A DNA stretch of 38,993 nt from assembly GCA_036172245.1 (NCBI GenBank), contig JAYWIR010000123.1, positions 62,001 to 100,993 of the forward strand, read 5' to 3'. Positions 7,331 to 38,993 of this stretch are shown in pieces (position 1 is the first letter of the stretch; every line of letters begins with the position of its first letter). Source of the DNA: Raillietiella orientalis. Its lineage: Eukaryota. The notes under the pieces are model-generated. The model saw only the letters and a list, made by a program, of their open reading frames with translations. It ran no database searches and was not told the DNA's origin. The translations under genes were made by a program, and so were the position numbers.

Positions 7331-7371
7331 ATCGAAAGATTTACGCATATCGACTGCGATCGCAAAGACTC

Positions 7372-8356
7372 ATTTTTTGGCATTCCTTGCCGACACCACG
7401 CGCACAGGTGCTTGTGGGCACACCTTCTGCGTGTGCCCCATTGTCCCGCATACCTGGTACTGTACGTTGGGGCACCTCCTATTGAGGTGTCCCGACGTGT
7501 TGCAGAAGCCACAGTATTTGAGCTTCCCCACGTACCAGAGGTCGACGCTTTCTCCGCCGACCACCAGTTTGTGGGGAAGGGTAGAGCCCTTCTGAACGGT
7601 TACACGGGCAGCCGTGAGTCCGCACTGAACTGTGATATAGTCCTCGAAAGGACTAGGCTTGGTCCATACTGCATGTACCGTGCCTTCTTTTCCCAATGCG
7701 GCGCGTAATTGTTCATTCCGCATCCGCGCGGTAACTCCTAAAAGGTGGACCACCATACTGTGGTCCTCCTTAATACGAAGGAGCCTGCGTGTCCCCAACA
7801 CCACGGGGCTTTTGAGAAGACGTTGGGCAGATCTGCGTGTTTGCAGATCACCTCTACGTACTGCCCCCCGCTAGGAATGGTCTTAGCGCAGAGCTCCTCC
7901 TCTTTAACATCGAGAGCGCGCATCCCCTTCGAATAGGCGCGCGCACTCTCAGAAGAATACAAATTTCCTACCTTGTAGAATAGTGATGGGTTATACCGCT
8001 CTTCTACATAGGCAGATAATTCCGCCGCGGCTACAGGCGATGCCGCCGACACGATGGCGCTCCACGCCCGCGCTGCAGCGGGGACCGGTTGTGTGGGGGC
8101 GGACGCCCCCACCTCCTTCGCCACTGAAGGCGACGTTGCCGCCGCCCCCTGGCACTCCAACTTTTCTAGAGGCGACGTTGCCGCCGCCACCTGGCACTCC
8201 ATTTCTTCAGGAGGCGACGTTGCCACCGCCCCCTGACACGCATTGGTGGTAGTGTCAGGCATTGCTGCCCAATCGACCACCACTACACACGAAGCCTACA
8301 CCTAGGGACAATTCCCGGCACGAGGAGCACCGAGAAAACACGTCCGCTCTAACCGA
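7372..8356 (-). mobile_element. Element G: 5' UTR plus ORF1 (frameshifted, ATG ~8262, truncated after the CCHC knuckles)
   Basis: MPDTTT..., ARAWSAIV, SGGQYVEVICK, LPHKLVVGGESVDLWYVGKLKYCGFCNTSGHLNRRC. 5' motif AGAGCGGACGTGTTTTCTCG at 8331-8350. 5' end abuts the RKAFD codons of element F. Confidence 0.9.
8128..8238 (-). repeat. 42-bp coding tandem repeat (~2.6 copies; CQGAxATSPxEEME) in the ORF1 N-terminus of G
   Basis: GGCGACGTTGCC recurs at 8129, 8171 and 8213. Confidence 0.9.
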
Positions 8357-10521: not shown

Positions 10522-10702
10522 ACCTGCGCTGGAGTAAAGTGCTCCTGGTCTTCTTCGTCCAGTAAGCAGGCATACTTGGATTGCTAGGCCTGCCTCTCTG
10601 CTCCAGCCTTGAACTCTGCCAGGCGACTGACGTTGGGCTTGTTAAAGAACGACGGGCGTGCGGATAGCTCCTGTCGTTCCTCACCCCATCCCCGAAGACC
10701 GG
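10522..10702 (-). pseudogene. Fragment M: EN-RT linker of an older minus-strand element, sandwiched between two antisense insertions
   Basis: Reverse complement translates (with a frameshift) as PVFGDGVRNDRSYPHARR..KPNVSRLAEFKAGAERQA*QS..LLDEEDQEHFTPAQ, homologous to GFGEGPRNERCYLQARR..RRLAEYRAGAERQAWQS in element A. Confidence 0.85.
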
Positions 10703-12719
10703 CCTCGAAAAACCTTTCACCACCGGCGAAATTCTTGCCGGTATCAGAAGGCTCAAGAGACGTAAGGCTCCAGGGGAGGACGGCTTGCCCGCGAAGTTCT
10801 TCCGGTGCTTCGCGGCAGAGCTGGCACTTCTGGTTCTCGAGTTGACAAGGCTAATCCGAGAAGAAGGCGATGTTCCCGCCACGTTTCGGTCAGCCAGGGT
10901 GAGGCTGATTTCGAAGGGAGCAGAACTCAGGAAACTTAGCAACTGGTGTCCGATCACGATTGTGAACACGGACGCCAAGTTGATTGCCGGGCTGTGACCG
11001 GGATAGGTGTCCAATTCCATGATTAGTCCGGAGAAGACCTACGCTGTTCCCGGGCGAAGTATGGAGGACAACCTCTTCTTCGCGAGCACATGGTGTCAAG
11101 TGCAGCGGACTGAGAAGGAAGTGAACGGGAAAATTTGCAACCCCAGTTTGGGACCGTCAGTAGGACAGGGAAGGGACATCCGGGCAGGGAAGAGGGCCCT
11201 AGTGATCGCGGTCGATCTCCAAAAGGCGTTCGACTGCGTGGACCAGGAGCTTCTGTTGGAGCTCCTGGGTCGTATGGGCCTCAAAACCACCTTGATAACC
11301 GACCTGCGCTCCTGCTGGCGACATGCGATTGTTACCGTCTCTTTTAGCAGTCAGAAGGTGTATAACTTGCTGGTGTGACGGGGCATAGGGCAGGGCGATA
11401 GTCTCAGTCCCCGGCTCTTTAGCACCTACTTTGAATTGGTGCTGAGAGCGTACAGGGCAACTGTGCCCCCTTGCTGAGCTCGTGCTTCGGCACGGCCGCC
11501 GTAGCAGCGTACGCCGACGATCTTCTACTCATGTTACCTATGTCCACCCCGGCGAAGGCGGTCGGGGATTTCTTCGATCTGCTTAGCCGCGGGACAGGAC
11601 TACAGGTGAACCAAGCGAAGACGACGGTGGTGCCAGTAGATGCGCCGTGGTCAGGTCAGCAGGATTGGGTCCGTTTGAAGATCCCCATGACGAGGTACGT
11701 CAAGTACCTTGGTGTGCCGTTTGCGGATTACTCCTCTGCGGAATAGTGGTCCGGCTGCCTCCGAAAAGTCGAGTCGGCAATCGGCCCGTTCCTGGAAGTC
11801 AAGTTTCACTTGCAGTTACGGGCCGTGGTTTGAAACTCCTTCACCGCCCCTATCCTCGGTCCCTTGCTTTTTGTTTGCCCCTTCCCCGTTGAAGTCAAGA
11901 AGAGGACGAAGGACTTCCTCTATATTGCCCTTTTGGGCAATGTGAATCCTTGAGTCCCTTTCAGGGACTTATGCGCTCCGCTTCGGGATGGTGGTCTTGG
12001 CCTCCTAAAGCTGGAGCGCTTGGAGGTACAGCTGCGATGGCGCACCCTCGCTATCGCAGCGAAGTCGTGGAGCACCTCTTCCTGCGTTCCGGCCTGCCTA
12101 CTCGCCAGGCGTGTGTGGAGGTACGAAGAACTCGCATCTTTTCTTCTGTTCCCTGGCCGGAAGATCAGAAGATGCGGCCTACTGCTCGGGCGCATGGGAA
12201 CCCTGGCAAAGAACAGCTGGATGGTTTGCAGCCCTGCCAAATTCTCCGCCTGGCTGGAGGAAACCGCTGGCACCTGGGCTGCTATTAACCTGCGGAGTGA
12301 TGAATCTTGCAAGCGCCTGCGCTGCAGCATATACGCTTGCCGCACTCTGGAAGAAATACTGGAGTTTCCCGCGAGCAACACTTGGGCCGATACGACACCC
12401 CTTGCTACGGCGATGCCCTTGCTGACGAAGGCGCTTCACGGCAGCCGGATGCGAAGGTTGCAATTCTCCTGCCGAATCGCAGGCAGGGAGAAGTTTATAA
12501 GCGGCTGGAAAACAGGAGAACTGGCGGACGCCACGACCACGAGCGTCCAGCCGCGTGGTATACTGAGAAGGGGCGAGCTGCTCGCCATCCCCAGGGATGA
12601 GGCGAAGTGGCCCCCGGCATGGAATGAATACAGGATCCTGACCCTTAAGTGGCAAGAGTCGATGCTGCTGCTGTTGCACTGGGGTTTACCCTGCAACGTG
12701 CGTCGCTTCCACTGGACGC
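10703..12719 (+). mobile_element. Element I: 5'-truncated B-family ORF2 (RT to start of zf region), degraded
   Basis: EKPFTTGEILAGI, KAPGEDG, DLQKAFD, AYADD, MSTPAKAVGDFFDLLSRGTG and GELADATTTSVQPRG closely match elements D and C. Confidence 0.9.
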
Positions 12720-21344: not shown

Positions 21345-22725
21345 CAAGCCGCCGCCGTACGAACGCCGATGCCGCGACAAAGTCGCGAACCCAGCGTGAG
21401 CGGCGACGACCGGGACTTCAACAAGGCGGCGGAAGAGTTGGCAGCCATGCTCCAGCAACCTCCCAAGGCCCAGAAGAAGGCCTTGAGGCGTCCGGCTGAG
21501 GCGAAAGGACCGGAGACTTCCGAGTCCGAAACCGAAGCCGGCAACGCTCCATCTGTCGCTCTCCCGATGCGCAAAGCGGGCCGCAAGGTAGGCAACCCGC
21601 GGCGCTCCGCACCTCCACCGGCGGAGGAGGAAATGCGGTCGGACCACGACGACGGGGACGCGATGTCAACGAGGTCTCGCGACTCCTCGCCGGAGACGTC
21701 CCTGGCTAAGCAGGATCCTCCAACCACCACCTCAACCACCGACGGACCGCCACCTTGCGAGGAACAGCACGTCGCAATGGAAACACAACTCCCGCCTGCT
21801 GAACAGCAGGCGGAGGACGGTAAGCAAGCGCAATAAACACATCACCGCGTGTACTCTCCTCCTGCCGGCGACTGCGCGTAATCTGTTGGAACGTCAACGG
21901 GCTGCGCGACGACGGCAAGAGGAGAGAAGTGGCCGCCAGCCTGCGGGACTTCGTTCTGGCGCTACTGCAGGAGACGCACGTGCTCCACGCAGGGGAGGCC
22001 CAAGAAATCGAACATATCGCAGGCGGGCGGCTCATATACGAGAACGGGATACCGCACTCGCGGTGTGGCTTTCATGCTGAAGCCAGCCGTCGTTAATGCG
22101 CTGCGCGACGAGCATTTCGACGGGGAAGGTCAAATCGGGCAGCTTGTTGCCAAGTGGTCCGACGCGATCGACCTCGTCGTGACCAACGTGTACGCGCCCG
22201 GCACGAGCCACAGGCGCGGGGAACGCACTGCGTTCTTCGAAGGCCTGCGGCGAGATTGGCTGGCCGAAGCAGGCATGCGAAAGGCGCCCCTCATTGCCGG
22301 GGACTTTAACGTCCGCCTGCTGGCAGGTGCGCCCGACATTCGCGCACACCTGGTCAACGAGATGTGCGCTGCCATGCACGCGCGCAACTTGTTGGCCGGT
22401 GACGCCGGGACGGAGACGAGGATCGACCACATGTTCCTCGAGAACCACCTGTGTTCGCGGGTGGCAAATCGAGGGGCAGTGCCATCCGAACTCTCCGACC
22501 ATCCCCGGCTCGTGCAAGATATACACCCGCGCGGTAGAGGTCCACCCTCCAAATTGTGGCGTTTGCCAGGGGACTGATTGCGCCTCGCAGGAGCAGCGCA
22601 ACATCTTCGCTCGTTCCTGCAAGGCTTCCATCTGCAGTCGCTCGCGGATTGGGACGACTTGAAGAGCTCAGTCCGCGAGTTCTGCGACCAGTTTCCCCTG
22701 AACCGTCTCCCTCCAGGTTTCGGCG
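21345..22725 (+). mobile_element. Fragment E: ORF1 C-terminus plus APE endonuclease up to the GFG linker
   Basis: DFNKAAEELAAML..RKAGRK (ORF1, stop 21836). CWNVNG, LLQETH, TNVYAPG, IAGDFN, RIDHMFL, SDHPR, FCDQFPLNRLPPGFG, then cut by the 3' end of D. Confidence 0.9.
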
Positions 22726-22930
22726 TTGTCACCCGGGTACGCCCGGGGCGTTTATTTATAAACTCTACATGCGTGGTACGAAGCCCCACCACGGCCGTAA
22801 ACACGCCACCTGTCGGGACACCGGGACGCAGCCCGGCGTGGCACTCCCCGACAGCCAAGGGGGATGGGGATAAGGCAAAAAGTAAAATAAAAAGAAACAA
22901 ACAAAAATAAGTTGGAGGGCAGGGAAGGGA

Positions 22931-25724
22931 TCACTGGTCGCTGTGGGGAGGGCCCATCCGTCGAACGATGCCCTCGAGGTCAGTCTGCATATTCCCCAGT
23001 TGGGGCCATCCAGCAGCTCTTCGCAAGAAGCGTTGGGCATACGGGATGACATCCCTCGCCTGTGGACCCACTCCTTCGTTGTTGGCGTCGCTCCATGCCG
23101 CCACGATGCCACGGACGCAGCACAAGGCTGCGATGGCTGCGGCTGGCTGCAGTGCGTCCTTCACGAAGAGAGGCCGAAGAACGTCTCTGGGGGTGCTGCC
23201 TGTAGGGAGCCCGAGGGTCGTCCCGAACCGTTCAAAAAGGGGTCAAAGGGCAGCACAATCCACAATAAGGTGGGGAAGCGACTCCCGCTCCCCGCACCTG
23301 GCACACGTAGGATTTACTGCTCCCCTCGTCCAGTGGAAGCACCGCGCGTTGCAGGGTAGAGCCCAGTGCAACAAAAGCAACGCCGACTCTTGCCACTTGA
23401 GGGGCAGGATCCTGGATTCCTTCATCATCGGGGGCCACTTCAGCTCATCCCTGGGAATGGCGAGCAGCTCGCCCCATCTTAATAATCCTCGCGGCTGGAC
23501 GCTCGGGGTCGTGGCGTCTGCCAGTTCTCCTGTTGTCCAGCCGCTGATCAACTTTTCGCGTCCCTCGATGCAGCAGGAGACTTGCCACCTTGGCGTCCGC
23601 CTGCTGTGAAGTGCCCTCTTCAGGAAGGGCAGCGCCGTAGCTAGACAGGTCGTCTCTGCCCACGTGCATCTTGCTGGACTCTCCAGGAGATTCCGCAGCG
23701 TGCAGCGGGCGTAGGGGATGCATCGGAGACGATTCCACGTCTCGTGGCTTGTCTTGTTCACCACTGCTTACGTTCCAATATTTTCCTCCAGCCAGGCGGG
23801 GGAGTTGGCGGGGCAGCAAACCATCGAGCTGTTCTCCTTGGCCAATGTTGCCATGCGCCCGAGCAGTAGGCCGCATCTTCGCATCTTCCGGCCACGACTC
23901 AGAAGAAAAGACGCGAGTCCATCGCACCGGGACACACGGCTGGCCAGGAGGCGGGCCGGAGTGCACCAAGTGATGCTCCACATCTTCGCTGCGATAGCGA
24001 GGGTTCGCCACCGCAGCTGCTTCTGCACGCGCTCCAGCGTCAGGAGGCCAAGACCGCCGTCCCGACGCGGAGCGCACAAGTCCTTTAGTGGGAATCGGGG
24101 CCTCCCCTTGCCCCAAAGGGCGATACGGAGGAGGTCCTTCGTCCTTTTCTTGGATTCCACGGTGGGAGGGCAAACAAAAAGCAAGGGGCGGAGGATGGAG
24201 GCCGCGAAGGCGTTGCAAACCGCGGCCCGTTCCGGCAAGTGAAACTTGCCTTCCAGGAACGGGCCGATCGCCGTCTCGACTTTTTGGAGGCACCTGGACC
24301 ACGATTCCGCAGGGGAGTAGTCCCCCAACGGCACATCAAGGTACTTGAAGCACCTCGCCGTGGGGATCCCCAGACTGACCCCGTCCTGCTGCTTTGCCCA
24401 CGCCGCACCTATTGGCACAACCGACGACTTCTCCCTGTTAACCTGCAGTCCGGTCCCGCGGCTGAGCAGATCGAATAAGTCTCGGACCGCCTTTGCCGGG
24501 GTGGACATTGGCAACAAAAGCAGAAGATCGTCGGCGTACGCTGCTATGGCAGGCGTGCCGGGGCACGAGATCGGCAATGGGGCCAAAGTCACCCTGTACG
24601 CTCTCAGCACCAACTGAAAGTAGGTGCTGAAGAGCAGGGGGTTGAGGCTATCGCCCTGCCTTATGCCCCGCCGCACCGGCACGCCATACACCTTTTGGCT
24701 GCTGAAAGAGACGGTAATCATCGCATTCCGCCAGCAAGAGCGCAAGTAGGAAATCAGGGAAGGTGGGAAGCCCAAGCGACCCAGGAGCAACAAGAGGGGT
24801 TCCTTGTCTACACAGTCGAACGCCTTGTGGAGGTCGACTGCGAGCGCTAGGGCCCCCTTTCCCGCCCGGGGGTTCCCTGCCAGCCCGGCTTTCGGCCTCA
24901 ATGTGGGGTTGCCGACTTTCCCTATTCCTTTCTTTTCTCTTCTCTGCAGGTGCACCCATGTGCTTGCGAAGAAGAGGTTGGCATCCATACTTCGCCCGGG
25001 AACAGCAGAAGTCTGCTCCAGGCTGATTACGGATTCTGACACCTGCCCCAGACGCGAAGCCCATAGCCCGGCTATCAACTTGGCGTCCGTATTCACGATC
25101 GTGATCAAACGCCAGTTCTTTTACTTCCTGAGGTCTCCCCCTTTCGGAAGGAGGCTCACTCTGGCTGACCGAAACGAGGCGGGAACATCGCCTTCGTCTC
25201 GGATCAGCCTTGTCAGCTGAAGCAGCAGGGGTGCCAGCTCTTCCGCGAAGCTCTGATAAAACTCCACGGGCAAGCCGTCTTCCCCTGGAGCTTTACGCCT
25301 CTTGAGCCTTTTGATACCGGCGAGAATTTCGCCGGTGGTAAAAGGCTCATCGAGGCTTAACGACTCCTCCTCCCCTATTGCCGGGGCACCATCCGGAAGG
25401 AAGAGCCGAGAGGCATCTTGATCCGGGGGCGCCCTGGCGTGAAGGGAGGAATAATAACTCCGCACGAGATGCCGTACCGACGCCGGGGACGAACATTCCC
25501 GGCCCTGGTCGTCCAGCAAGCTGGCCGACCCGGATTGCCAGGCTTGGCGTTCGGCCCCGGCGCGGTACTCGGCCAGGCGACGGACATTAGGGGTTCGCTC
25601 GTACCTACGGGCCCGTAAATAGGCCCGATGGTTGCGAGGACCCTCGCCGAATCCGGAGGGCAGGCGGTCCAGGGGGAACTGCTCGCAGAACTCCCGGACC
25701 GATTCCTTAAAAAGGTCCCAGTCT
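22931..25724 (-). pseudogene. D ORF2, linker + RT + zf-RVT; single reading frame with three in-frame stops (25121, 23768, 23243)
   Basis: ORFs 25121-25519, 23768-25108, 23243-23764 and 22931-23164 are all in the same frame. DLHKAFD, GIRQGDS, AYADD, CARCGERESLPHL. Confidence 0.92.
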
Positions 25725-25741
25725 TGGAGATTCCGGAGCGT

Positions 25742-25760
25742 CGAGCGGACGTGTCTTTTC
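25742..25760 (+). promoter_or_regulatory. Conserved 5'-terminal motif GAGCGGACGTGY(Y)TTT(T)C, putative internal promoter or start element (also 8331-8350 minus, ~15018-15035, 34025-34043 minus, 37011-37029)
   Basis: Found at or within ~20 nt of the 5' junction of five copies from three divergent ORF1 types (degenerate in H). Function is inferred. Confidence 0.55.
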
Positions 25761-25823
25761 GTTGCTCCTGAGCTCCATTTCCGATGGTGCTTGTGCGTGG
25801 TGTGGGTGGAGGATTACGCAGCA

Positions 25824-27482
25824 ATGCCTGATACCACCACCGGTGAGGATCCGGGAGTGATGACCTCATTGCCCCCGGAGGAGATGGAGGTGGGGGCTCC
25901 CGCATCAGTGGAGGCTCCCGCCAGCACGGATGCGCCCCCGGCCCTACCCAGGGCTTGGAACGCCGTGGCTGCGGCACCTACGCCAGCGGCTATGGCGGAA
26001 ATGCGCGCTTACCTGGAGGAGGGGTATAACCCACCACTTCTATATAAGGTAGGCGGTTTATATTCTCCCGAGAACGCGCGCGCCTTTTCGCAGGCGATGC
26101 GCGCTCTCGGTGTACAAAAAGAGGAGCTTCTGGCTATGTCCGTCAGAAGCGGGGGTCAATTTGTGGAAGTTATCTGCAAGGAGGCAACTCTTGCTCAGAG
26201 ACTTCTGCGAACCCCCGTAATTATGGGCAGCCGGAGGCTTCTCCCCATTACTGAAGACCGGTCGGTGATCATTCACCTGACCGGTATCACGTTCCGGATG
26301 ACGAAGGAGTCCGTCCGGAACGAATTAGAAAAGTTTGCAACTGTGCACGCGCTGTGGGGAAAGCCTACTCCTTTTGTCGATTACGACGGGGTGCTTGGCG
26401 GCCTGGTTGCAGCGCGAGTGACGGTTCGCGAGGGATGTGAGTTTCCCCACAAACTCACCGTCAACGGTGAATCCGTTGACGTGTGGTACGTGGGGAAACC
26501 CAAGTTTTGCGGCTGCTGCAGCAGCTTTGGTCACCTTAAAATGAGGTGTCCGAGCGTGCAGTGCCAGCAATGCAAACAAGCGGGGCACACCCGTCTGGTG
26601 TGCTTCCAAAACACAGTCCGCGTCGTGTCCGCGAAAAACGCGAGAAAGCGCGCGGCTAAAAAAAGGAAGAAGCTGGCAGCTCGTGCTGCTGCTAAGGAGG
26701 TCACCTCCGTCACCAAGGCGAAGGCCAGCCCCGAGACTTCGGCGAAAGACGCCGAAAAGGTCGAGGGCGAGGGTCAAGAGCCATGGTGGCAGAATGTCGA
26801 CCCCAAGAAAAACTCCCATAAGAAGGGAAAGAACGTGGCGAAACGGAGCGAAACCGCTCTGCGCCGCGAAAAAATTAAAAGCTGCTGCGTCGTTGTAGAG
26901 CGGATTCCCGCCATCGACGAATGCGGCGCTAAAGAACTCGCTGCTGCCCCTGCTCAACCCTCCGTTGACAAAGTCAACAAGGAGGGGAGCGAGGCGGCGG
27001 CGTCCGTCATCGAGCCCACGCTCGATGACGTCGCCTTCGAGCGCGCCGCGGAGGAGCTGGCTGCTTCGCTGCAGCCGGTTGCCCCCAAGGCTGGCAAGAA
27101 GGCCGTCAGGCGTCCGGCTTCCCCTCAGGAGTCGGCCACTTCCGACCCCGAGGTGAAGGCCGGAAAAACAGCATCCATCTTCGCGGCACCCCGCAAAAAG
27201 GCAGGACGAAAGTCCACAATGCCCCGGAAGATCGTGTCCCCCGACGAAGGGGAAGAGATGGCTTCCGGTAGCGAGGGTGCCATGAGCGTGGGAAACTCCC
27301 GGGACCCGTCGCCCGAGAGAATTCCACGCTCGGACACGGAGGGGATGGTGAGGATGGAGGCCGAACAGGTACCCCAGGCGCCTGAAGAGGCCTCCGTTTT
27401 CGTTCCGATGGTCCTCGTACCGATGGACCTTTCGTACACCTGCCCCGCGGCAGGTGCCGCGACGCCACTTTCCCAGCCATAA
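25824..27482 (+). CDS. Element A ORF1, intact gag-like nucleic-acid-binding protein (~552 aa; RRM-like region, 2x CCHC, disordered basic/acidic tail)
   Basis: Open frame. ATG 25824 (MPDTTT) aligns with the starts of G and H. CGCCSSFGHLKMRC and CQQCKQAGHTRLVC. Confidence 0.9.
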   Translation: MPDTTTGEDPGVMTSLPPEEMEVGAPASVEAPASTDAPPALPRAWNAVAAAPTPAAMAEMRAYLEEGYNPPLLYKVGGLYSPENARAFSQAMRALGVQKEELLAMSVRSGGQFVEVICKEATLAQRLLRTPVIMGSRRLLPITEDRSVIIHLTGITFRMTKESVRNELEKFATVHALWGKPTPFVDYDGVLGGLVAARVTVREGCEFPHKLTVNGESVDVWYVGKPKFCGCCSSFGHLKMRCPSVQCQQCKQAGHTRLVCFQNTVRVVSAKNARKRAAKKRKKLAARAAAKEVTSVTKAKASPETSAKDAEKVEGEGQEPWWQNVDPKKNSHKKGKNVAKRSETALRREKIKSCCVVVERIPAIDECGAKELAAAPAQPSVDKVNKEGSEAAASVIEPTLDDVAFERAAEELAASLQPVAPKAGKKAVRRPASPQESATSDPEVKAGKTASIFAAPRKKAGRKSTMPRKIVSPDEGEEMASGSEGAMSVGNSRDPSPERIPRSDTEGMVRMEAEQVPQAPEEASVFVPMVLVPMDLSYTCPAAGAATPLSQP

Positions 27483-30400
27483 TGCCGGGAATCGCCTCTC
27501 GCCGTCATCTTCTGATCGCCTGTTGGAACGTGAACGGGCTAAGCGACGACGGCAAGAGGCGTGACGTGGCCGCCACCCTGGCATCCTTCGACCTGGTGCT
27601 GCTGCAGGAGATCCACGTGATCTCCGCAGATCAAGCCCGGGAGATCGAACGGATCTCGGGTGGGCGGCTGTTGTGGCGTTGCGGCACCGCGAAATCAAGC
27701 GGTGTCGCCTTCCGGCTTCGGCCAGCCATCGAGACCGCAATAAAGGACGTTCGGTTCGATGACGCAGGTCGCGTCGGTCAGCTGACTCTCAGCTGGTCCG
27801 ACTCTATCGACCTGGTCGTCACCAACCTATACGCTCCTAGCGGAAATAACGCGTTGAAGGCGAAGGCAAGAAGGGAATTCTACCTTGCCCTGAGACGCGA
27901 CTGGCTGACCGATGCAGGAGTTCGCAAAGCGCACCTGATCGCAGGTGATTTCAACCTGCGCCTGCTTTCAGGTGCGCCGGATACACTGAACGACCGCGTC
28001 AACAAGTTGTGCGCAGAAATGAACACGCGCAACTTGTTGGCCGGGGACACGGCCATGGAAAGCAGCATCGATCACGTGTACCTTGATCAGCACCTATGCT
28101 CTCGGGTGGGCAGGCGCGGCAAGGTACCATCCGAGCTGTCGGACCATGGTCGGATCATGTTCGAAGTGCGTCCGCGCGACAAGGGCCCCCCCTCGTCAGC
28201 GTGGCGTCTGCCAGGGGACTGGTTGAAGTTTCCCGACGCGGCGGAGCACCTCCGCGCGTTTATTCGGAGCTTCAGGATGCAGACACTTCAGGACTGGGAC
28301 CGCTTCAAGCGGTCGGTCCAGGAGTTCTGCGATCAGTTCCCCCTGCATCGCCTACCTGCGGGATTTGGGGAGGGGCCGCGTAACGAAAGGTGCTATCTTC
28401 AGGCCCGACGTTACGCAAGAACCCCCGACATGCGCAGGTTAGCAGAGTATCGAGCGGGAGCCGAGAGGCAAGCCTGGCAATCCGGGTCGGCCAGCTTGCT
28501 GGACGACCGGGGCCGGGAGCACTCGGTTCCCGCTCAGAAACGCGGGATAGTCAGGAAATTTTACTCCTCCCTGTACGCCAGGGCGCCTCCGGAGAGAGAC
28601 GTCTCACGACTTCTGCTTCCGGAAGGTGCTCCAGCGATCGGGGAGGAGGAGAAAAGAAGCCTCGACGAGCCTTTCACGATGGACGAGATCCTCTCGGCCA
28701 TCGGAAAGCTCAAGAGGCGGAAGGCTCCAGGGGGGACGGCCTGCCCGCGGAGTTTTACCAAACTTTCGCGGCTGAGCTTACTCCCCTGGTACATCAGCTC
28801 ACCTTGCTGATCCGTGAAACAGGTGACGTTCCCACCTCGTTTCGTTCAGCAAAGGTGCGGCTCCTCCCGAAGGGAGGAGACCTAAGGAGCATGAACAACA
28901 GGCGTCCCATTACAATAGTGAATGCGGACGCCAAGTTGATAGCCAAGATGGAGGCAGAGCGCCTGGGACGGGTCGCCAACATCTTCATCAGCCCGGAACA
29001 GACTTATGCTGTTCCCGGGCGGAGCATGGAGGCGAACCTGTTCCACGCTTCCACATGGTTAGAGCTCCAACAAGGAAGGGGCTTATTGAGCAGCCGGAAT
29101 TCCGGTGCGTCCGTTGGCGGGAGACGGAACGGTTGGGTGGGGAAGGGAGCCCTTGCGGTCGCTGTCGACTTGCGTAAAGAATTCGACAGCGTCGACCAGA
29201 ATCTCCTGCTGGAGCTTCTGGAACGCTTGGGCTTCCCGGCCTCTTTGTTGGCCTACCTGCGCTCCAGCTGGCGCGACGCGCTCATTAATGTTCTTTTCAG
29301 CGGGCAGACCGTGCACGGAGTACCGGTGCGACGCGGCATACGGCAGGGAGACAGCCTGAGCCCCGTGCTCTTTAGCGCCTTTTTCGAATTAATGCTGAGA
29401 GCGTATAGGGAGACTCTTGCGCACCTGCCGTGCGATTGCCCCGGTACGCCTGCGGTTTCGGCGTACGCGGACGACCTTCTGCTCCTGCTGCCTATGTCCA
29501 CCCCGGCTTCGGCGGTCGAGGAGTTCTTCGACCTGCAGAGTCCGGGAACAGGACTGACGGTGAACAGGGCGAAGTCGTCCGTAATGCCAGTCGGGGCGGC
29601 GTGGGCAGGGCAGCAGGACTGGGTCCGTTTGGAAATCCCCACGGTGAGGTACTTCAATTACCTTGGTGTGCCGTTGGGGGATTACTCCTCTGCGGAAGCG
29701 TGGTCCGGCTGCCTTCAGAAGGCTCAGGAGGGGATCGGCCCGTTCCAGGACGGCAGGTTCTTCCTGCATGAACGGGCCGCGGCGTGGAACGCGTTTGCGG
29801 CCCCCCTCCTTCGCCCCTTGCTTTTTGTTTGCCCCCCCTCAGCGGAGTCAAAGAAGAGGACGAAGGACCTCCTGAGGATCGCCCTTTCGGGCAGAGGGAG
29901 GCCCCGAGTCCGTCTATCGGACTTGTGCGCTCCTCGTCGGGATGGTGGTCTGGGCCTCCTGACGTTGAAGCGGCTGGAGCTACAGCTCCAGTTCCGAGTT
30001 GTTGCCTTTATGGCAGAAAATTGGTGCACCCCTTGGTGCCTCCCTGCACGTCTTCTCGTCGAGCGGGCCACCGGCAATGCAAGACTCTCGTCCTACTTTG
30101 CACTCCGAAGCCCCATCTGCCACTGCGGACTTCAACTTCGGAGTGCGGCCAAGCTCGTGAAGAACAACTCGGCGCGGATCCTCGTACGCCCCGCGAACGG
30201 TCCTGCCTGGTTGCAGGAAACCGTCCGCACGTGGGCGATGATTCAGCAGCAGAGCCCGAAACACGAGCGAATAGCTCTGTTCGGGCCGCATGCCCGCCGC
30301 ACGCTCCGAGAAATCATCGAGAATCCCCGAAGAAGAGCGTGAACACAAAGAATCTCCCTTGCTGCGGTACTGCCTACCCTACGGGAACATCTGGGCAGCG

Positions 30401-31061
30401 ACGTCGCGGCACAATGGGAGGTTACTGTCAAGATCGCCAGCAGGGCAAAGAAGATCGGGGATTGGAGAACGGGTCAGCTCAATAACGCTGCGACCCCGAG
30501 GACCACCCCAAATATACTGTTGCGCTGAAGAGAGCTACTAGATGTTCCAGAGGAACATCTCGAGTGGCCTTCGGTGCTCATAGACTCGCGCACCCTCCCC
30601 ATGAAGTGGCAACAGTCGGCACTGATGGTGTTGCATTGGGGGCTTCCTTGCAACGCCCGCCGACAGCACTGGACTTGGGGGGGTGTCAACCCTAATTGTG
30701 TCAGGTGCGGGGAGAGGGAATACCTCACCACCTGTTAGTGGATTGTGTTGCCCTCCGTCCCTTGTGGGAACGCTTTGCCGCAGCCCTGGGGATCCCCGGA
30801 GGCAACTCCAGAGACGCTTTGCGCCCCCACTTCGTCCGTGACGCCCTGCCTCCAGAGGCCTCGCTTGCAGCCCTGGGCTGCCTACGCGAGATCGTCGTGG
30901 CATGGAGCAAAGCGACGGGAGGATCCAGCGACAGGGATGCCAACGTGTATGTTGCCCGTTTCTACTGGATGTCGACGCGATGGCCCCATCTGGAACCACA
31001 CAAGCAGAAACAGCTTGCCGGCATCCTCCAGAGGATGACGGACCCTCCCAGCAGACTGTGA
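27482..31061 (+). pseudogene. Element A ORF2 (APE endonuclease, RT, zf-RVT), frameshifted near 28730, ~30340 and ~30720
   Basis: ATG overlaps the ORF1 stop (TAATG). WNVNG, LLQEIH, NLYAP, GDFN, IDHVY, SDH; DLRKEFD, GIRQGDSLSP, AYADD; CVRCGERE..HHLLVDC. Confidence 0.93.
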
Positions 31062-31244
31062 TCCCTTCCCGCTCCCTCCCTGATTTTTGTTTTTTTTTTG
31101 TTTTCTTTTTGTTTCGTTCCCCCTCCCCTCTGCTGCCGAGGTCGACCGCGCCGGTCTGCGCACCAGTAGCCCGGCAAGCTATATCTTTCCAGGGCGTGGC
31201 TGGACTACTGGTCCAGTCACAGATTGTATAGGTTTATTCGTGAG

Positions 31245-31274
31245 AACAAACGTCCCGGCGCACCCAGGTTTCAA
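31245..31274 (+). other. Conserved 3'-terminal module: poly(A)-signal-like hexamer + CCCGG-N5/6-CCGGG hairpin + ~6-nt tail (9 copies in the window)
   Basis: Copies at 6343-6372(-), 7301-7330(+), 10491-10521(+), 12933-12962(-), 16162-16191(-), 21315-21344(+), 22726-22756(-), 31245-31274(+), 34063-34092(-). Two of them directly abut verified TSDs. Confidence 0.88.
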
Positions 31275-32077
31275 TGGAGATTCCGGAGCGTGACGCCTCT
31301 CAGGTAATCGCGAAGGTGTTCACTCGCACCTGAGATTAGCGTCCAGTCCCCCAACAGACACCAATCCCTGGATGGCGGTCCTTTGTCGCGAGGACGCATC
31401 TCGAAAATTAGCCGGGAATGGTCCGACAACGTCGACACAACCCTCCCCCGTTTGCCGACGCGTGAACACAGGACAGCGTCGAGGAAGACGTGGTCGATGC
31501 TGTGGACCATTCCCCTCTCACCCGTGAACAAGTTGCGCGCACGCATGGCGGCGCACAACTCGTTCATCGCGTTCACTTGTGTTTCCGGCTCACCTGTTAG
31601 CAGGCGGAGATTGAAATCTCCCGCTATCAGGTGAGCTTTTCGCACATTGGTATCCGCCAGCCAGTCGCGCTTCAGGGTTTCCAGCAGCCTGGTGCGGTCG
31701 CGGTACCCCTGTTTGCCGCTGGGGCCATACACGTTTGTGACGATTAGGTCGATCGAGTCGGACCAGCTGAGAATCAGCTGACCGATCCGACCGTCGTCAT
31801 CAAACCGCACGCCCTTTACGGCAGCGTCGATGACCGGCTTCACGAAGAACGCGACCCCGCAGGTGTTGCGGAGGCCGCATCGCCAATACAACCGACCTCC
31901 CGCGATCGTCACGATTTCCTGGGCGTCTGCCGCGGTGATCACGTGGATCTCCTGCAGCAGCGCCAGGTCGAGCTCACGCAGGGTGTCGGCCGTATCTCGA
32001 CTGTTGCCGTTGTCGCGCAGCCCGTTGACGTTCCAAATGGCCGCGCGAATCCCACGGCGACTGGCGAGCCCAGGTGT
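31275..32077 (-). pseudogene. D ORF2 N-terminal APE endonuclease (open frame, no AUG start), separated from its RT by element A
   Basis: TPGLASRRGIRAAIWNVNGLRD..LLQEIH..TNVYGPS..IAGDFN..SIDHVFL..SDHSR. Confidence 0.92.
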
Positions 32078-33950
32078 TAGTCCTGGAAAAACGGCGATGC
32101 GGCGTCCGCCACCTGCTGGGGCGGGTCGCTAGGTGGAGGGGGAGGGGATACAGGTACTGAAGGCACCTGTTCCTCCTCCTCCATCGGTGCCGGCGGGTCG
32201 ACCGGATCACCCGCAGGTGAAGTCGCGCCTACCTGTTCGCCCTCCTCCATGGGTTCGGGCTGCTCAGGTTTCGCGAGTGCAGGGAGGACTTCACCCCCCT
32301 GCTCACCCTCCTCCATGGGGGTGGTCGAGTCGACGGCTTCCGGGCGTGGGTATTCCCCCTCCGGGATTCCCACGCTGCCGCTTCCTTCCGGTTTCTACTC
32401 CTCGCTGGTGGAGTGGAGGCGCCTCCTGGGTTTCTGGGACTTGCGTCCCGCCTTCCTGGGGGGTGCCTCCGAGGAGGAGGATCCGCTTCCGGCCCCCAGG
32501 TCGCACTCACCTGCGGGTGCCTTTTTCGTCGGAGCCGACCTGCGTACGCCCTTGCGCGACGGGGTTTCGCGCTCGGCGAGCGTTGCTGGGAGCTCCTCCG
32601 CCGCTTTCTCGAAGGCCGCGTCTTCGCCAGCGGCGACCGTTGCCGCGGGCTGCTTTGCGACCTTATCGAGCGCTGCGTCATCGCTGACGGCGAACGTTGC
32701 CGCGGGCTCATCCGCGACATTATCGAGCGCGGCGTTCTGGCTGTCAGCGCTCGAGTCTCGCGTCTCACCCTCTAAACGTAGAATGGGCTGGTCCACGCGA
32801 GTATTCATCGCGTCCGCATCAGCTGTTCCGCGAACATTGCCGCGGGCGGTCTCGGCAGGAACGGCTAAGCGTTCCAGTGCCACCGAGCATTCGCGGAGTG
32901 GTTTTTTTGAAAGCGGCGCGGCTTTTTTCTTGTTGCCGGCAGTATTCTTCTCCGACTTTTCTTCTGGCATCACTTTCCTTTTTTTCTCTTTTCTGGCCTG
33001 AACCAGCTACCAACCCTCCTCCATTTTCGCGTTCACGGGAGCTCTTTCCTCCGACGTCTGTACGGGAGGAAGGGAGGCTGGCAGTTGGGAACGGCCATTT
33101 TCGCGAGCTGGTCTTTCTACCAGCTTCCCACGTTTTCCCTGCGCCTTTTTGGCGGCAGGGGAACCGAGGTGGGGCGCTTGGGTCACACGCGCCGAACGTG
33201 ACCCTTTTCGCCGCATAGGTGGCACACAATGTTCGGGCACCTTTTTCGTAGATGCCCTACTGCATTGCAGTAGCCACAAAATTGACGTTTCCCCACGTAC
33301 CAGAGGTCCACCGCTTCTTGGCAGACCTCCAGCTTCTGGGGAATTGCACCACCCACTTTTAGTGTGATACGCGCCGCAGCTTGACCTCCGAAAAGGCTAT
33401 TGTAGCTTCGGAAAATCGTGGACTTCGGCCACAACGCGTGCACTTCTCCCTGCTTTTGTATCTGTTCTCGAACCGCTGACCTAGTCATGCGACTGGAGAT
33501 CCCAGTGAGATGGACCGCCACAGAGCGGTCCATCGTCCCCGGCAAGATCTTGCGACCATCAACGATCAGCGGGTTGGTGATCAGGCGTCGGGCCAAGGTG
33601 ATATCCTTGCATACCACCTCGACCCGCTGCCCGCCGCTGAGGAAGCAGAGGCCGACAAGATCTTTTTCGAAGATATTGGCGTTCTGCAGCGCATTCGTAA
33701 GGGCGCGTGCAGTTCGTCCATCGAAAAGGTTCCCTACCTTGTAGACTAGCGAGGGTTTATACCCCGCTTTCTTGTAGGCTTCCATCTCGGCCATGGCTTC
33801 AACGCTAGGCGCTGCCACTATGGCGCTCCATGACCTTGGCGTCGCCGGGGACGATTCCGGGGCGGATGCCCCTGATCCAGTAGGCTGTGGAGGTGAACAA
33901 GCATCTTCCACGCCTACTTCCATCGCGGTATCCTCTGGCGACGCTGCCAT
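32077..33950 (-). pseudogene. D ORF1 (near-identical to B ORF1, with a stop/frameshift near 33180 and a stop at 32395)
   Basis: ORFs 33183-33974, 32395-32973 and 32077-32373 together tile the B ORF1 protein. Confidence 0.92.
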
Positions 33951-34062
33951 CGGACACCGACGATGTGCACGCACAAATCACTCAAGAAGAAAAAACACTC
34001 GCTTTGCCACGCAGGCGGAGCGCAGGAAAAGCACGTCCGCTCTCCACAGCGGGGATTCGGCG

Positions 34063-37001
34063 ATGCCACCCGGATACGCCGGGACGTTTATTAAAAACAT
34101 TTCAACGGTCAATACAGAACGTGGTACAAGGCCCCACTAACGGCCACGCAATACGGGAACTGCCGGGACACCGGGACGCAGCTCGGTGTGGCTCTCCTCA
34201 GCAGCAGAGGGGGATGGGGGAGAACACAAAAATAAAATAAAAGAGAAAAGCAAACCACAAAAAAAAGTTTGGAGGGCCGGGAAGGGATCACAGAAAACTG
34301 CTGGGAGGGCCCATCCTTTGCAGGATGCTTTCTAGTTCCTTTTTTATCCTTCCTAGATGGGTCCATCGGGTAGCTCTCTGCAGGAAGCGAGAAGCATACT
34401 CGATGACATCCCTGACGATGCAGTCTTCATCTTCGGCATCACTCCAGGCCGCCACTATACCACGCATGCAGCAAAGTGCTGCCAGGGCTGCAGCTGGACT
34501 GAGGGCGTCCCGCACGAAGACAAGACTGAAGATACATTCACCATTGCCAGCATCCGGTATCCCAAGTGCCGTTTGAAGACGTTCCCAAAGAATCTGGACG
34601 GCAGGGCATTCAACTAAGAGGTGGGGGAGCGACTCCCGCTCCCCACACCTGGCACACGCAGGATTTACTCTTCCCCGCGTCCAGTGGAAGCGGCGCGCGT
34701 TGCAGGGTAGACCCCAATGCAGACACAGAAGCGCCGATTCTTGCCACTTCAGGGAAGAATCCTGAATCCAAGTAGAACCGGGGGCCACTTCAGGTCGTCC
34801 AATCGAATGCAGAGCAGCTCGCCCCATCTTCTTAATCCACGCGGCTGGATACTAGGGGTCGTTGCATCTGTCAACTCTTCCATGGTCCTGCCGCTCATCG
34901 TCTTCTCTCTGCCTGCGATACGGCAGCAGACTTGCCACCTTAGCTTCCGGCTTTCGTGAAGCGCCCTTTAGAGGTAGGGCATCGCCGTAACAAGGGGTGG
35001 GCCTTTCGCTTACGTGCAACTCGGAGGAAATTCAAGTATTACACGGAGAGTTTGTCGGGCGTAAAAGCCGTCTCGCAGGCAGTTCATCTGGTCTTCGCAC
35101 CTCTCGTTCAGCTTGGCCCAGGTGCCAGCAGTCTCTTCCAGCCAAGCGAAGGAGTTGTTAGGACCACAAACCATCCATTCGTTCTCCTTTGCCAGGGTTG
35201 CCATGCGGCCGAGGAGTAGACCGCATCTTCGAATCATCCGGATAGGGTACAGAAGAAACGATGCGAGTCCTTCGCAGCGGGACACATGGCTGGCCAGGAG
35301 ACCGGCCGGAATGCACCAAGCGGTGCTCCACATCTTCGCTAAGATGGCGAGGATCCGCCATCGCAGCTGGATTTTTACGCGCTCCAGCGTCAGGATGCTG
35401 AGACCGCCGTCCCGACGCGGAGCGCACAAGTCCTTCAAAGGGGATCGGGGCCTTCCCTTGCCCCAAAGAGCTATGCGGAGGAGGTCCTTCGTTCGCTTTT
35501 TCGATTCCACGGGGGCGGGGCAAACAAAAAGCAAGGGGCGGAGTATGGGGGCCGCGAAGGCGTTCCAAACCGCGGCCCGTTCCGCCAAGTGGAACTTGCC
35601 TTCCAGGTACGGCCCTATCGCCGTCTCGACTTTTTGGAGGCAGCTGGACCACGCTTTTGCAGGGGAGAAGTCCCCCAACGGCACACCGAGGTACTTGATG
35701 CACCTCATTGTGGGGATCCCCAGACGCACCCAGTCCTGCTGCCTTGCCCACGTCGCTCCAACTGGCAACACTGACGACTTCGCCCTGTTAACCTGTAATC
35801 CGGCCCCACGGCTAAGCAGGTCGAAGAAATCTCCGACCGCCTTCGCCGGGGTGGACATACGTAAGAGGAGCAGAAAATCGTCGGCATACGCCGCTACGGC
35901 TGGCGTGCCGGGGCACGAGCTCGGCATGGGGCCAAAGTCACCCTGTACGCTCTCAGCACCAACTCAGCGTAGGTGCTAAAAAGCAGGGGGCTGAGGCTGT
36001 CGCCCGGCCTTATGCCCCGCCGCACCGGGACGTCATACACCTTTTGTCCACTGAAAGTAATTGAGATTATCCCGTTCCGCCAGCAAGAGCGCAGGTAAGC
36101 ATCAAGGAGGGTGAGAAGCCCATGCGACCCAGGATCTCCAAGAGGAGTTCCTGGTCAACACAGTCGAATGCCTTATCAAGGTCGACTGCGATCGCTATGG
36201 CCCCCTTTCCCGCATGATGGTCCCTACATTGTCCCACTGGCGGCTCCAAAGTAGGGTTGCAAATTTTCCCTTTCCCTTTTTATTACTCCGCTGCGCGTGC
36301 ATCCATGTGCTCGCGAAGAGGAGGTTGTCCTCCATACTTCGCCCGGGAACAGCGTATGTCTGCTCCGGGCTAATTATGGAATTGGACACCTTCCCCGATC
36401 GCGACGCCCACAGCCTGGCAATCAACTTGGCGTCCGTGTTCACAATCGTGATCCGACGGCAGTTGCAAAGTTTCCTGAGGTCTCCTCCCTTCGGGAGGAG
36501 CCTCACCCTGGCTGACCGAAACGAGGCGGGAACATCGCCTTCGTCTCGGATTCGCCTTGTCAACCAGAGCACCAGGGGGGCCAGCTCTTCCGCTAAACTC
36601 TGAAAGAACTCCGCGGGAAAGCCGTCCTCCCCTGGCGCCTTACGCCTCTTGAACCTTTTGAGACCGGCGAGAATTTCACCGGTCGTGAAAGGCTCATCGA
36701 GGCTTTCTCTCTCCTCCTCCCCTATCGCCACGGAACCACTCATGAGCAATCGCCGCGAGGCGTCTTGTTCGGGTGGAGTTTTGGCGTAAATGGAGGAATA
36801 AAAACATCGTACGAGATTCCGTAAAGCAGACGGGGAAGAACGTTCCCGACCCAGGTCATCCAGCATGCTGGCTGACCCGGATTGCCAGGCTTTTCGCTCG
36901 GCTCCGGAGCGGTATTCGGCCAGGCGACGGACATTGGGGTTCCTCTCGTGACCACGCGCGTGCAAATACGCGCGTTCGTTGCGAGCCCCTACGCCGAATC
37001 C
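34063..37001 (-). mobile_element. Element C (B family): ORF2 from the GFG linker to zf-RVT plus 3' UTR and terminus; head-to-tail with D, interrupted by B
   Basis: GFGVGARNERAYL, KAPGEDG, DLDKAFD, AYADDF, IKYLGVP, CARCGERESLPHLLVEC. 3' UTR similar to D. Terminus AATAAACGTCCCGGCGTATCCGGGTGGCAT. Confidence 0.92.
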
Positions 37002-37103
37002 CCGCTGTGGAGAGCGGACGTGCTTTTCCTGCGCTCCGCCTGCGTGGCAAAGCGAGTGTTTTTTCTTCTTGAGTGATATGTGCGTGCACATCGTCGTTTT
37101 CCG

Positions 37104-38981
37104 ATGGCATCGTTGCCAGAGGACAATGCGATGGAAGTAGGCGTGATAAAGGCTTGTTCGTCCCCACAGCCTACTGGATCAGGGGCATCCGCCCCGGAAT
37201 CGTCCCCGGCGACGCCGAGGTCCTGGAGCGCCATGGTGGCCGCGCCTAGCGTGGACGCCATGGCCGAGATGGAAGCCTACAAGAAAGCGGGGTATAAACC
37301 CTCGCTAGTCTACAAGGTAGGCAACATTTTCGATGGGCGAACTGCACGCGCCTTTACGAAGGCGCTGCAGGACGCCAATATTTTTGAAAAAGATCTCGAC
37401 GGCCTCTGCGTCCTCAGCGGCGGGCAGCGGGTCGAGGTGGTATGCAAGGATATCACCTTGGCCCGACACCTGATCACCGACCCGCTGATCGGTGATGGTC
37501 GGAAGATCTTACCGATAACGATGGACCGCTCGGTGGTGGTCCATCTCACTGGGATCTCAAGTCGCATGACGAGGTCAGCGGTTCGAGAACAGCTACAAGA
37601 GCACGGAGAAGTGCACGCGTTGTGGCCGAAGTCCACGATTTTCCAAGGCTACAATAGCCTTTTCGGAGGTCAAGCTGCGGCGCGTATCACAGTAAAAGAG
37701 GGTGGTGCGCTTCCCCACAAGCTGGAGGTCTGCCAAGAAGCGATGGACCTCTGGTACGTGGGAAAACGCCAATTTTGTGGCTACTGCAATGCAGTAGGGC
37801 ATCTACGAAAAAGGTGCCCGAACATTGTGTGCCACCTATGCGGCGAAAAGGGTCACGTTCGGCGCGTGTGCCCCAAGCGCCCCACATCGGTGCCCCCTGC
37901 CGCCAAAAAGGCGCAGGGAAAACGTGGAAAGCTGGTAGAAAGACCAGCTCGCGAAAATGGCCGTTCCCAACTGCCAGCCTCCCTTCCTCCCGTACATACG
38001 TCGGAGGAAATAGCTCCCATGGACGAGGGAATGGAGGAGGGTTATCAGCTGGTTCAGGCCAGAAAAGAGAAAAAAAACAAAGTGATGATAGAAGAAAATT
38101 CGGAGAAGAAAACTGCCGGCAACAAGAAGAAAAAAGCCGCGCCGCTTTCAAAAAAAAAACTCCGCGAATGCTCGGTGGCACTGGAACGCTTAGCCGTTCC
38201 TGCCGAGTCCGCCCGCGGCAATGTTCGCGAAACAGCTGATGCGGACGCGATGAAAACTCGCGTGGACGAGCCCAATCTACGTGTAGAGGGTGAGACGCGA
38301 GACTCGCGCGCCGACAGCCAGGACGCCGCGCTCGATAAAGTCGCGGAGGAGCCCGCGGCAACGTTCGCCGTCAACGATGACGCCGCGCTCGATAAGGTCG
38401 CGGAGCAGCCCGCGGCAACGGTCGCCGCTGGCGAAGACGCGGCCTTCGAGAAAGCGGCGGAGGAGCTCGCAGCAACGCTCGCCGGGCGCGAAACCCCTTC
38501 GCGCAAGGGCGTACGCAGGTCGGCTCCGACGAAGAAGGCCCCCGCAGGTGAGTGCGACCTGGGGGCCGGAAGCGGATCCTCCTCCTCGGAGGCACCCCCC
38601 AGGAAGTCGGGACGCAATTCCCAGAAACCCAGGAGGCGCCTCCCCTCCACCAGCGAGGAGGAGAAACCGGAAGGAAGCGGCAGCGTGGGAATCCCGGAGG
38701 GGGAATACCCACGCCCGGAAGCCGTCGAGTCGGCCACCCCCATGGAAGAGGGAGAGCAGGGGGGTGAAGTCCTCCCTACAGTAGCGAAACCTAAGCAGCC
38801 CGAACCCATGGAGGAAGGCGACCAGGTAGGCGCGACTCCACGTGCGGGTGATCCGGCCGAAGCGCCGGCACCGATGGAGGAGGAGGAAAAGGTGCCTTCA
38901 GTACCTGTCCCTCCTCCCCCTCCACCTAGCGTCCCGTCCCAGCAGGTGGCGGACGCCGCATCGCCGTTTTCCCTGGACTAA
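37104..38981 (+). CDS. Element B ORF1, intact (~625 aa from ATG 37104), gag-like with 2x CCHC
   Basis: Uninterrupted frame. SGGQRVEVVCK, LPHKL..LWYVGKRQFCGYCNAVGHLRKRC..CHLCGEKGHVRRVC. Confidence 0.9.
   Translation: MASLPEDNAMEVGVIKACSSPQPTGSGASAPESSPATPRSWSAMVAAPSVDAMAEMEAYKKAGYKPSLVYKVGNIFDGRTARAFTKALQDANIFEKDLDGLCVLSGGQRVEVVCKDITLARHLITDPLIGDGRKILPITMDRSVVVHLTGISSRMTRSAVREQLQEHGEVHALWPKSTIFQGYNSLFGGQAAARITVKEGGALPHKLEVCQEAMDLWYVGKRQFCGYCNAVGHLRKRCPNIVCHLCGEKGHVRRVCPKRPTSVPPAAKKAQGKRGKLVERPARENGRSQLPASLPPVHTSEEIAPMDEGMEEGYQLVQARKEKKNKVMIEENSEKKTAGNKKKKAAPLSKKKLRECSVALERLAVPAESARGNVRETADADAMKTRVDEPNLRVEGETRDSRADSQDAALDKVAEEPAATFAVNDDAALDKVAEQPAATVAAGEDAAFEKAAEELAATLAGRETPSRKGVRRSAPTKKAPAGECDLGAGSGSSSSEAPPRKSGRNSQKPRRRLPSTSEEEKPEGSGSVGIPEGEYPRPEAVESATPMEEGEQGGEVLPTVAKPKQPEPMEEGDQVGATPRAGDPAEAPAPMEEEEKVPSVPVPPPPPPSVPSQQVADAASPFSLD
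38322..38492 (+). repeat. 57-bp coding tandem repeat x3 (DAALDKVAEEPAATFAVND-type) in B ORF1; also present in D at ~32565-32735
   Basis: GACGCCGCGCTCGATAA..GTCGCGGAG..CCCGCGGCAACG recurs with a 57-nt period. Confidence 0.9.
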
Positions 38982-38993
38982 CACCTGGGCTCG

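Follow-up and report, generated by a model that had tools for sequence, protein, structure and literature searches.

Recurrent antisense junctions of L1-like retrotransposons at Gly-Phe-Gly codons of related elements in Raillietiella orientalis, with a candidate 10-bp target-site duplication at the 5' ends

Sequence-specific long interspersed nuclear elements (LINEs) attract study both as natural tools for inserting DNA at a chosen site and for the evolution of target choice. The known targets of site-specific LINEs are mainly ribosomal DNA (rDNA), small RNA genes, telomeric or simple repeats, and a few DNA transposons. R2, whose endonuclease is restriction-like, is co-transcribed in the sense orientation with its host gene and possesses a ribozyme-processed 5' end with 28S sequence. 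Elements of the Tx1 group are L1-clade LINEs with an apurinic/apyrimidinic endonuclease (APE) that insert sequence-specifically into another mobile element; Tx1L targets a DNA transposon and is not known to target the coding sequence of its own relatives. The subject here is a stretch of 38,993 nucleotides (nt) from Raillietiella orientalis (contig JAYWIR010000123.1, positions 62,001 to 100,993), referred to as the window, which from about 5 kb to its end is a nest of retrotransposons without long terminal repeats (non-LTR). Elements of this nest, designated by letters (Table 1), meet their relatives at the same Gly-Phe-Gly (GFG) codons of open reading frame 2 (ORF2), and two of them, B and D, open with the same sequence.

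R1 targets 28S rDNA with a 14-bp target-site duplication (TSD), and its tandem copies are separated by the TSD, an arrangement attributed to new elements entering the TSD copy that lies 5' of a resident one (PMC2718515, Stage and Eickbush 2009). In some R1 lineages the RNA has target sequence at its 5' end, and this anneals to the target; for R2-type elements, the idea is described that a target-homologous RNA 5' end, or a few terminal nucleotides of the complementary DNA (cDNA), anneals to the cut target and primes the second strand (PMC2718515). Zepp and ZeppL of green algae belong to the L1 clade and form clusters by nested insertion that targets existing copies; Zepp has 61% GC, and many Zepp/ZeppL copies are 5'-truncated (PMC8226300, PMC3446292).

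D is a single minus-strand element that is cut in two by the full-length plus-strand element F. The latter is flanked by a perfect 16-bp TSD, GGAGATTCCGGAGCGT (25726-25741 and 31276-31291, 16/16), and served as the ruler for mapping the other elements (blastn, tblastn). D closes at its 3' end with CCCGGGTGACAA at 22726. Next to it stands CGCCGAAACCTGG, which corresponds in antisense to the Pro-Gly-Phe-Gly codons of the host E, and E terminates right against the end of D in CCAGGTTTCGGCG (22713-22725), which is CGCCGAAACCTGG read antisense. At the other end of D, the 3' terminus of C, CCGGGTGGCAT at 34063, adjoins the 10-mer CGCCGAATCC that precedes D; C is both the tandem partner of D and the host of B. 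The 3' junctions of D (GTGACAA, then CGCCGAAACC of host E) and of C (GGGTGGCAT, then CGCCGAATCC) fall at the same phosphodiester. Three 5' junctions are found on the opposite side of the 10-mer: that of B after the codons of C, that of D, and that of G after the CCCCGAAGAC of its host N plus 0-2 nt. Four junctions in four different hosts (3' of D, 3' of C, 5' of B and 5' of D) are located at the same codons, and the G junction is an informative fifth.

A mechanism may be proposed in which B, C, D and G belong to an L1-like LINE group that inserts antisense at the Pro-x-Gly-Phe-Gly codons in the ORF2 of relatives, between the endonuclease and reverse transcriptase (RT) domains. The endonuclease would nick the host sense strand directly after GGWTTCGGCG, and the nicked end would prime reverse transcription, placing the 3' end of the insert directly before CGCCGAAWCC. 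The opposite strand would be cut 10 nt further on, so that a 10-bp TSD flanks each insert. The 10-mer "leader" of B and D would be the 5' copy of this TSD, the element proper beginning with CCGCTGTGGA-GAGCGGACGTG. A copy of the target would be kept at each end of the insert, and a second hit on one of the copies would yield a head-to-tail pair with one 10-mer between its members, as in C-10-mer-D. Both the 10-nt stagger of cleavage and the order of events are inferred. The proposition that CGCCGAATCC before D and B is only the 5' copy of a 10-bp TSD, with the B family proper starting at CCGCTGTGGA, is given a probability of about 0.5.

The C-D pair resembles the arrangement of R1 arrays. The 3' end of C, CGCCGAATCC and the 5' end of D form two units in the same orientation with exactly one TSD-length copy of the target between them, and the 3' junction of C is at the canonical nick position, as is that of D in E. 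Only one such tandem pair is present in the window. With the 10-mer standing where a TSD is expected, the tandem is most simply explained as a second hit on a duplicated target, in which either C may have entered the 5' copy at D or D the 3' copy at C. An initial annotation of this DNA had placed C as an insertion into the leader of D; C does adjoin the 10-mer, but its later arrival does not follow from the junction, given that both orders are possible. Its proposal that the target copy before D can be reused, with a head-to-tail pair as the result, stands whether the 10-mer is a TSD or a leader, since the 3' junction of C is at the phosphodiester used by D in E. In summary of the likeness to R1 of Drosophila, the window holds apparently sequence-specific APE-type LINEs with a candidate fixed TSD and a tandem with one TSD-length spacer. 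Unlike that of R1, their target is a motif in the coding sequence of sibling LINEs, struck in antisense, and the duplication would measure 10 bp; their proteins resemble L1 ORF2p and do not fall by sequence in the R1 clade. They would work like R1 arrays yet, judged by sequence, are not R1.

B (plus strand, from 36992) and D (minus strand, from 34062) both open with CGCCGAATCC-CCGCTGTGGA-GAGCGGACGTG, and their first 31 nt are identical, which confirms the observation that they share a leader before the motif at which element A starts. The start of B is at 36992 or 37002 on the plus strand, depending on whether the 10-mer is counted. An 18-mer from this start, CGCCGAATCCCCGCTGTG, has exactly two occurrences (34045-34062, minus strand; 36992-37009, plus strand); when at most 3 mismatches are allowed, the expectation is 0.05 matches, and 0 of 100 shuffles yielded two. 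GAGCGGACGTG follows 2 nt past the 18-mer in both copies (34032-34042, minus strand; 37012-37022, plus strand), and also opens two further elements, at 8339-8349 (minus strand; A, from 8349) and 25743-25753 (plus strand; F). By itself the 10-mer is not rare (9 matches with at most 1 mismatch against 7.98 expected, and at least 9 in 34 of 100 shuffles), and its meaning comes from its position at the junctions. Also correct was the observation that the first 10 nt of the leader are the exact reverse complement of GGATTCGGCG inside D (minus strand, 25645-25654, Gly-Phe-Gly codons). These codons sit between the endonuclease and RT domains, and, D being split by F, they are truly internal to D. The complementarity is automatic, because the target is the antisense of a coding motif common to related hosts and inserts. 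In a separate observation, the extension and the core motif of B and D form a 5-bp inverted repeat at 37002-37017 (CCGCT GTGGAG AGCGG), which, speculatively, might be a snap-back priming relic of an ancestral 5' end.

It could be asked whether the shared start has any biological meaning, or reflects a chance match, an inverted duplication at the DNA level, or a mis-assembly of repeats. The region is highly repetitive, and the 10-mer taken alone is no rarer than expected by chance, but this explanation is very improbable. The 18-mers, with their expectation of 0.05, bound a 2-kb inverted repeat (32065-34062 against 38993-36992) over which B and the 5' part of D are 93.5% identical; the repeat is a matter of homology and not of chance. 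B and D differ at 126 sites and by 2 indels, and the differences are distributed over the codon positions as 41/29/56 (chi-square 8.7, p about 0.01). This bias, as seen for lineages under selection and not for a duplicate, indicates that part of the divergence arose under selection, and B and D appear not to be duplicates of one another at the DNA level. Nor do the four junctions at the same host codons in different hosts fit an accident. The 126 differences all occur within 1916 nt; the preceding 86 nt, at the very start of B and D (36992-37077 and 33977-34062), are identical. The chance of 86 difference-free nucleotides at the rate of the following 1916 nt is about 0.003. The 5' untranslated region (UTR) of B and D seems from this to be under strong constraint, and is perhaps an internal promoter.

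Several features of the junctions favor a TSD as the source of the 10-mer, which has the position and length expected of a 10-bp TSD. D is flanked by 10-mers that are identical at 9 of 10 bases, CGCCGAATCC in front and CGCCGAAACC of host E after the 3' end. The initial annotation had described the leader of D as not matching the TSD expected from E; a mismatch exists, but it concerns one base (T against A). TSDs are made generally in this group: 16/16 in F, 9/10 in D, and about 15 nt in inserts at a second target, the RT motif Lys-Ala/Glu-Phe-Asp (KAFD site). At B, the 10-mer is contiguous with the reading frame of host C and consists of the GFG codons of C itself, so that leader and TSD are indistinguishable there. 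The G junction says more. The 10-mer before G has the spelling of host N, CCCCGAAGAC, and is like the leader in 7 of 10 bases; as G starts about 2.9 kb into the element, its 10-mer cannot derive from a leader at the RNA 5' end. Regardless of where in the element an insert begins, the upstream break is 10-12 nt away from the canonical nick, as a staggered cut of 10 nt would produce. Junction positions, orientation, the 9/10 match and the perfect TSD of F can be read directly from the DNA.

There are also points that weigh against a plain TSD. The 5' 10-mer of D has T where the copy in E has A, and a pure TSD needs a later, exact A-to-T change. In the frame of E the difference is GGA/GGT, both Gly, whereas by estimate only 7 of the 30 single changes that the 10-mer allows are synonymous; for this reason A resembles the original spelling of E more than a random later mutation. 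The 86 nt without a difference imply little decay after insertion, which makes a mutation within the 10-mer less likely. As CCGCTGTGGA is inherited, transcription must have begun upstream of the core 5' motif at least once. Furthermore, B and G have only their 5' junction in the window and C only its 3' junction, so that a two-sided stagger is seen for D alone. The single T/A base is estimated to favor a leader roughly threefold.

The rival that these points support is a leader carried by the RNA. Transcripts of the B family would start at or upstream of CGCCGAAUCC, and the cDNA 3' end, GGATTCGGCG, would anneal to the cut top strand (...CGCCGAAWCC), setting a precise full-length 5' junction with a single 10-mer, possibly in the spelling of the element (T). 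The synonymous base and the inherited CCGCTGTGGA make such a target-annealing leader a live rival, though a less probable one than the TSD. The 10-mer is identical in B and D within the 86 difference-free nucleotides, with 6.6% divergence beyond them, and at the place of the inherited CCGCTGTGGA the KAFD-site inserts have a variable 6 and 11 nt. There is a precedent in the transcripts of melanogaster-type R1, which carry 6-27 nt of 28S sequence annealing to the target (PMC2718515). However, whether the leader is invariant against the host spelling can be judged from only two full-length copies with one informative base (T against A), the 10-mer of B being the same as the codons of its host, and the 5'-truncated G, in a group where TSDs are general, carries the spelling of the host. 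The elements are antisense to their hosts, and co-transcription from a host promoter, as in R2, therefore cannot supply the leader. Rfam gave no family anywhere in the window at gathering score, so no ribozyme, and none at the 5' end of B (36850-37350) at E values up to 5; the fold of the first 109 nt of B is no better than those of shuffled sequences (z 0.10). Finally, one DNA sequencing run (X1), which shares 6% of the window's words, gave 157 short contigs against the window, 91 of them less than 90% alike. One contig (about 87% alike) aligns only from 36999 rightwards, with 37 further letters unfitting, which hints at a copy without CGCCGAA. Of the two parts of the initial interpretation, the reusable duplicated target is thus retained, while an element-encoded leader, the evidence for which is a single base, is the less probable reading; G has its host's spelling.

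The compound structures could alternatively have arisen in one step. For C-D, the reverse transcriptase would have switched templates (template jumping), leaving D RNA at its 5' end and resuming at the 3' end of C RNA. For B-C, twin priming would have let the end of the cut top strand (...CGCCGAATCC-3') base-pair with GGAUUCGGCG inside the RNA of the same element, synthesis from there giving a 5' part in inverted orientation. The minus-strand order, B antisense up to its 5' end, then C from the GFG codons to its 3' end, then the 10-mer, is that of a twin-primed product; the top-strand end and the internal site of the RNA are perfectly complementary by construction; and at two junctions where elements meet head to head at the KAFD site, the absent host halves did not turn up elsewhere in the window. 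Such chimeras are nonetheless improbable. B is 93.5% identical to the 5' part of D, but C is just 78% identical to its 3' part, so B and C seem not to be the two halves of a single RNA. F within D is a plain nested insertion, with both host halves and a TSD, and the flank past the 3' end of H1 differs from the KAFD target that twin priming predicts.

These ideas can be joined in a wider reading, which is doubtful as a whole: an L1-like lineage would parasitise its relatives, with an endonuclease that recognises antisense ORF2 codons (GFG and, in a sister group, the RT motif Lys-Ala-Phe-Asp), and with an antisense-target leader at the RNA 5' end that anneals to the target, giving precise full-length junctions, a restored landing pad for the growth of arrays, and, through the complementarity of the cut top strand to the internal site of the RNA, programmed twin priming. 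Taken by itself, the leader is probably an ordinary TSD, and what is more out of the ordinary is the host target, conserved ORF2 codons of relatives that are hit in antisense. Literature searches found no report of a LINE targeting fixed codons of sibling LINEs, which is not proof of absence. If true, the family would find its safe harbour in coding sequence that belongs to its relatives, entering it at fixed codons and always in the same orientation, and targeting of self-relatives would explain the build-up of dense LINE nests, for example at algal centromeres. Were the leader carried by the RNA, the homology-guided 5' junctions of R1 and R2 would have a counterpart in it that is APE-type and inserted in antisense. 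Two GFG sites are unoccupied, that of D (25645-25654, with perfect target spelling) and that of F (28361-28370, GGATTTGGGG); not every copy of the target in the nest has been hit.

The assignment of the elements to the L1-like LINEs follows from their domains. In the open frames, Pfam finds zf-CCHC in ORF1 of B (6.7e-5), Exo_endo_phos in F (27386-28810, 5.9e-14) and in D (31271-32128, minus strand, 2.9e-11), and RVT_1 in F (28384-30342, 7.6e-19) and in D (23768-25120, minus strand, 3.6e-18); zf-RVT in 19692-21089 is slightly below the cut-off (27.0 against 27.5 bits). ORF2 has an N-terminal APE endonuclease followed by the RT, as is characteristic of L1-like non-LTR retrotransposons. The best relatives of solved structure (PDB) belong to human LINE-1 ORF2p (endonuclease part 1.6e-14, RT part 2.6e-26). 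No chain of the R1Bm or TRAS1 endonuclease was returned by the PDB search at E <= 0.01, the matches being L1 ORF2p and exodeoxyribonucleases. Given APE and RT domains with L1 ORF2p as nearest structures, the elements are classified as L1-like APE LINEs, with a predicted ORF1 (CCHC) and ORF2 (APE and RT). There is one close public protein relative, P0001, which is metagenomic and 67% identical; all other relatives are at most 29% identical, and a search of a protein atlas gave generic RT clusters only.

Like Zepp and ZeppL, the elements appear to be GC-rich L1-like LINEs (53-64% per kb here) that are nested into related copies, of which there are twelve inter-element junctions in the window, and that include 5'-truncated copies. 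The closest named proteins are at most 29% identical. Likeness to R2 is confined to the idea of a target-homologous RNA 5' end, which applies if the leader is RNA-borne. Unlike R2, the elements are APE-type and antisense to their hosts, and no ribozyme was detected with Rfam.

Table 1. Positions of the 5' motifs, elements, junctions and 3' ends discussed in the text.
Feature	Position in window	Strand	Remarks
10-mer CGCCGAATCC before D ("leader", candidate 5' TSD)	34053..34062	-	3' end of C abuts
Extension CCGCTGTGGA, 10 nt	34043..34052	-	common to D and B; absent from A and F
Core 5' motif GAGCGGACGTG of D	34032..34042	-	
10-mer CGCCGAATCC before B	36992..37001	+	same bases as the GFG codons of C, opposite strand
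D, 5' part	31292..34062	-	5' UTR, broken ORF1, start of ORF2 with APE domain
D, 3' part	22726..25741	-	rest of ORF2, own GFG codons 25645-25654, RT, 3' hairpin ending GTGACAA at 22726
F	25742..31275	+	full-length, nested antisense in D
E, host of D	21387..22725 (about)	+	cut after PGFG codons; target 10-mer 22716-22725
C	34063..37001	-	own GFG codons (36992-37001) to 3' end GGGTGGCAT at 34063
B	37002..38993	+	extension CCGCTGTGGA, core motif, 5' UTR, ORF1
N, host ORF2 fragment	10522..10699	-	ends at GFG-equivalent 10-mer, CCCCGAAGAC on + strand, 10690-10699
G, 5'-truncated insert	10702..12717	+	starts at about F coordinate 2906, 0-2 nt past 10-mer of N
KAFD-site junctions	8349/8356, 15009/15022, 7333/7334		5' ends of A and P, 3' end of short fragment M
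Hairpin 3' ends	7304-7333, 12936-12960, 16163-16188, 21318-21346, 22726-22753, 31248-31275, 34063-34089		

Copies outside the window were sought by several routes. A metagenome scan for the shared 5' motif gave at least 120 loci; none of the 120 listed is similar to B or F (blastn, E 1e-5), and these are chance matches. The same motif pattern has 7 loci in viral contigs, 0/7 of them similar, and the RT protein has no relative in viral contigs. Among the sequencing runs listed as sharing words with the window there is no RNA run.

The KAFD site is the second fixed target of the nest, at about F:3431 on the ruler, and is struck antisense three times. The duplication there is about 15 nt (ACGTAAAGNNTTCGA), and the 6 and 11 variable extra nucleotides lie between the duplication and the 5' ends. 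Overall, the insert is antisense to its host at 10 of the 12 assignable inter-element junctions, the exceptions being the C-D tandem and K-E at 21346; for the older stretch (5-21 kb) the assignments are less certain. Several host halves of the older nest (5-21.4 kb) are left without a partner. To the left of the nest, the flank (1-5000) has a GC content of 40-46% per kb, and the higher values begin with the onset of the nest near 5.0-5.1 kb. Neither a gene nor a tRNA is evident in positions 1-5000, and Rfam matches nothing there; near 5.0-5.1 kb no 3' end can be recognised for the outermost element.

A common hairpin, AAACGYCCCGG-NGNA-YCCGGGT, stands at seven 3' ends, where it precedes a short A-rich tail of 4-9 nt; no poly(A) is present at any of the seven, in which they depart from what is expected of L1-like elements. 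In the window the hairpin motif has 8 matches against 0.49 expected, which suggests a 3' stem-loop recognised by the reverse transcriptase. ORF1 of B is open (37104-38981, over 600 codons to the end of the window), whereas a 1-nt deletion interrupts that of D; B may have been active recently. Two elements, A (7373-8349 with 5126-7372) and K (18894-21346), follow the ruler over about 1-900/1176 and then jump to about 3400/4223, continuing through the 3' end. Each carries ORF1 together with the 3' portion of ORF2; they may be derivatives with an internal deletion, possibly non-autonomous.

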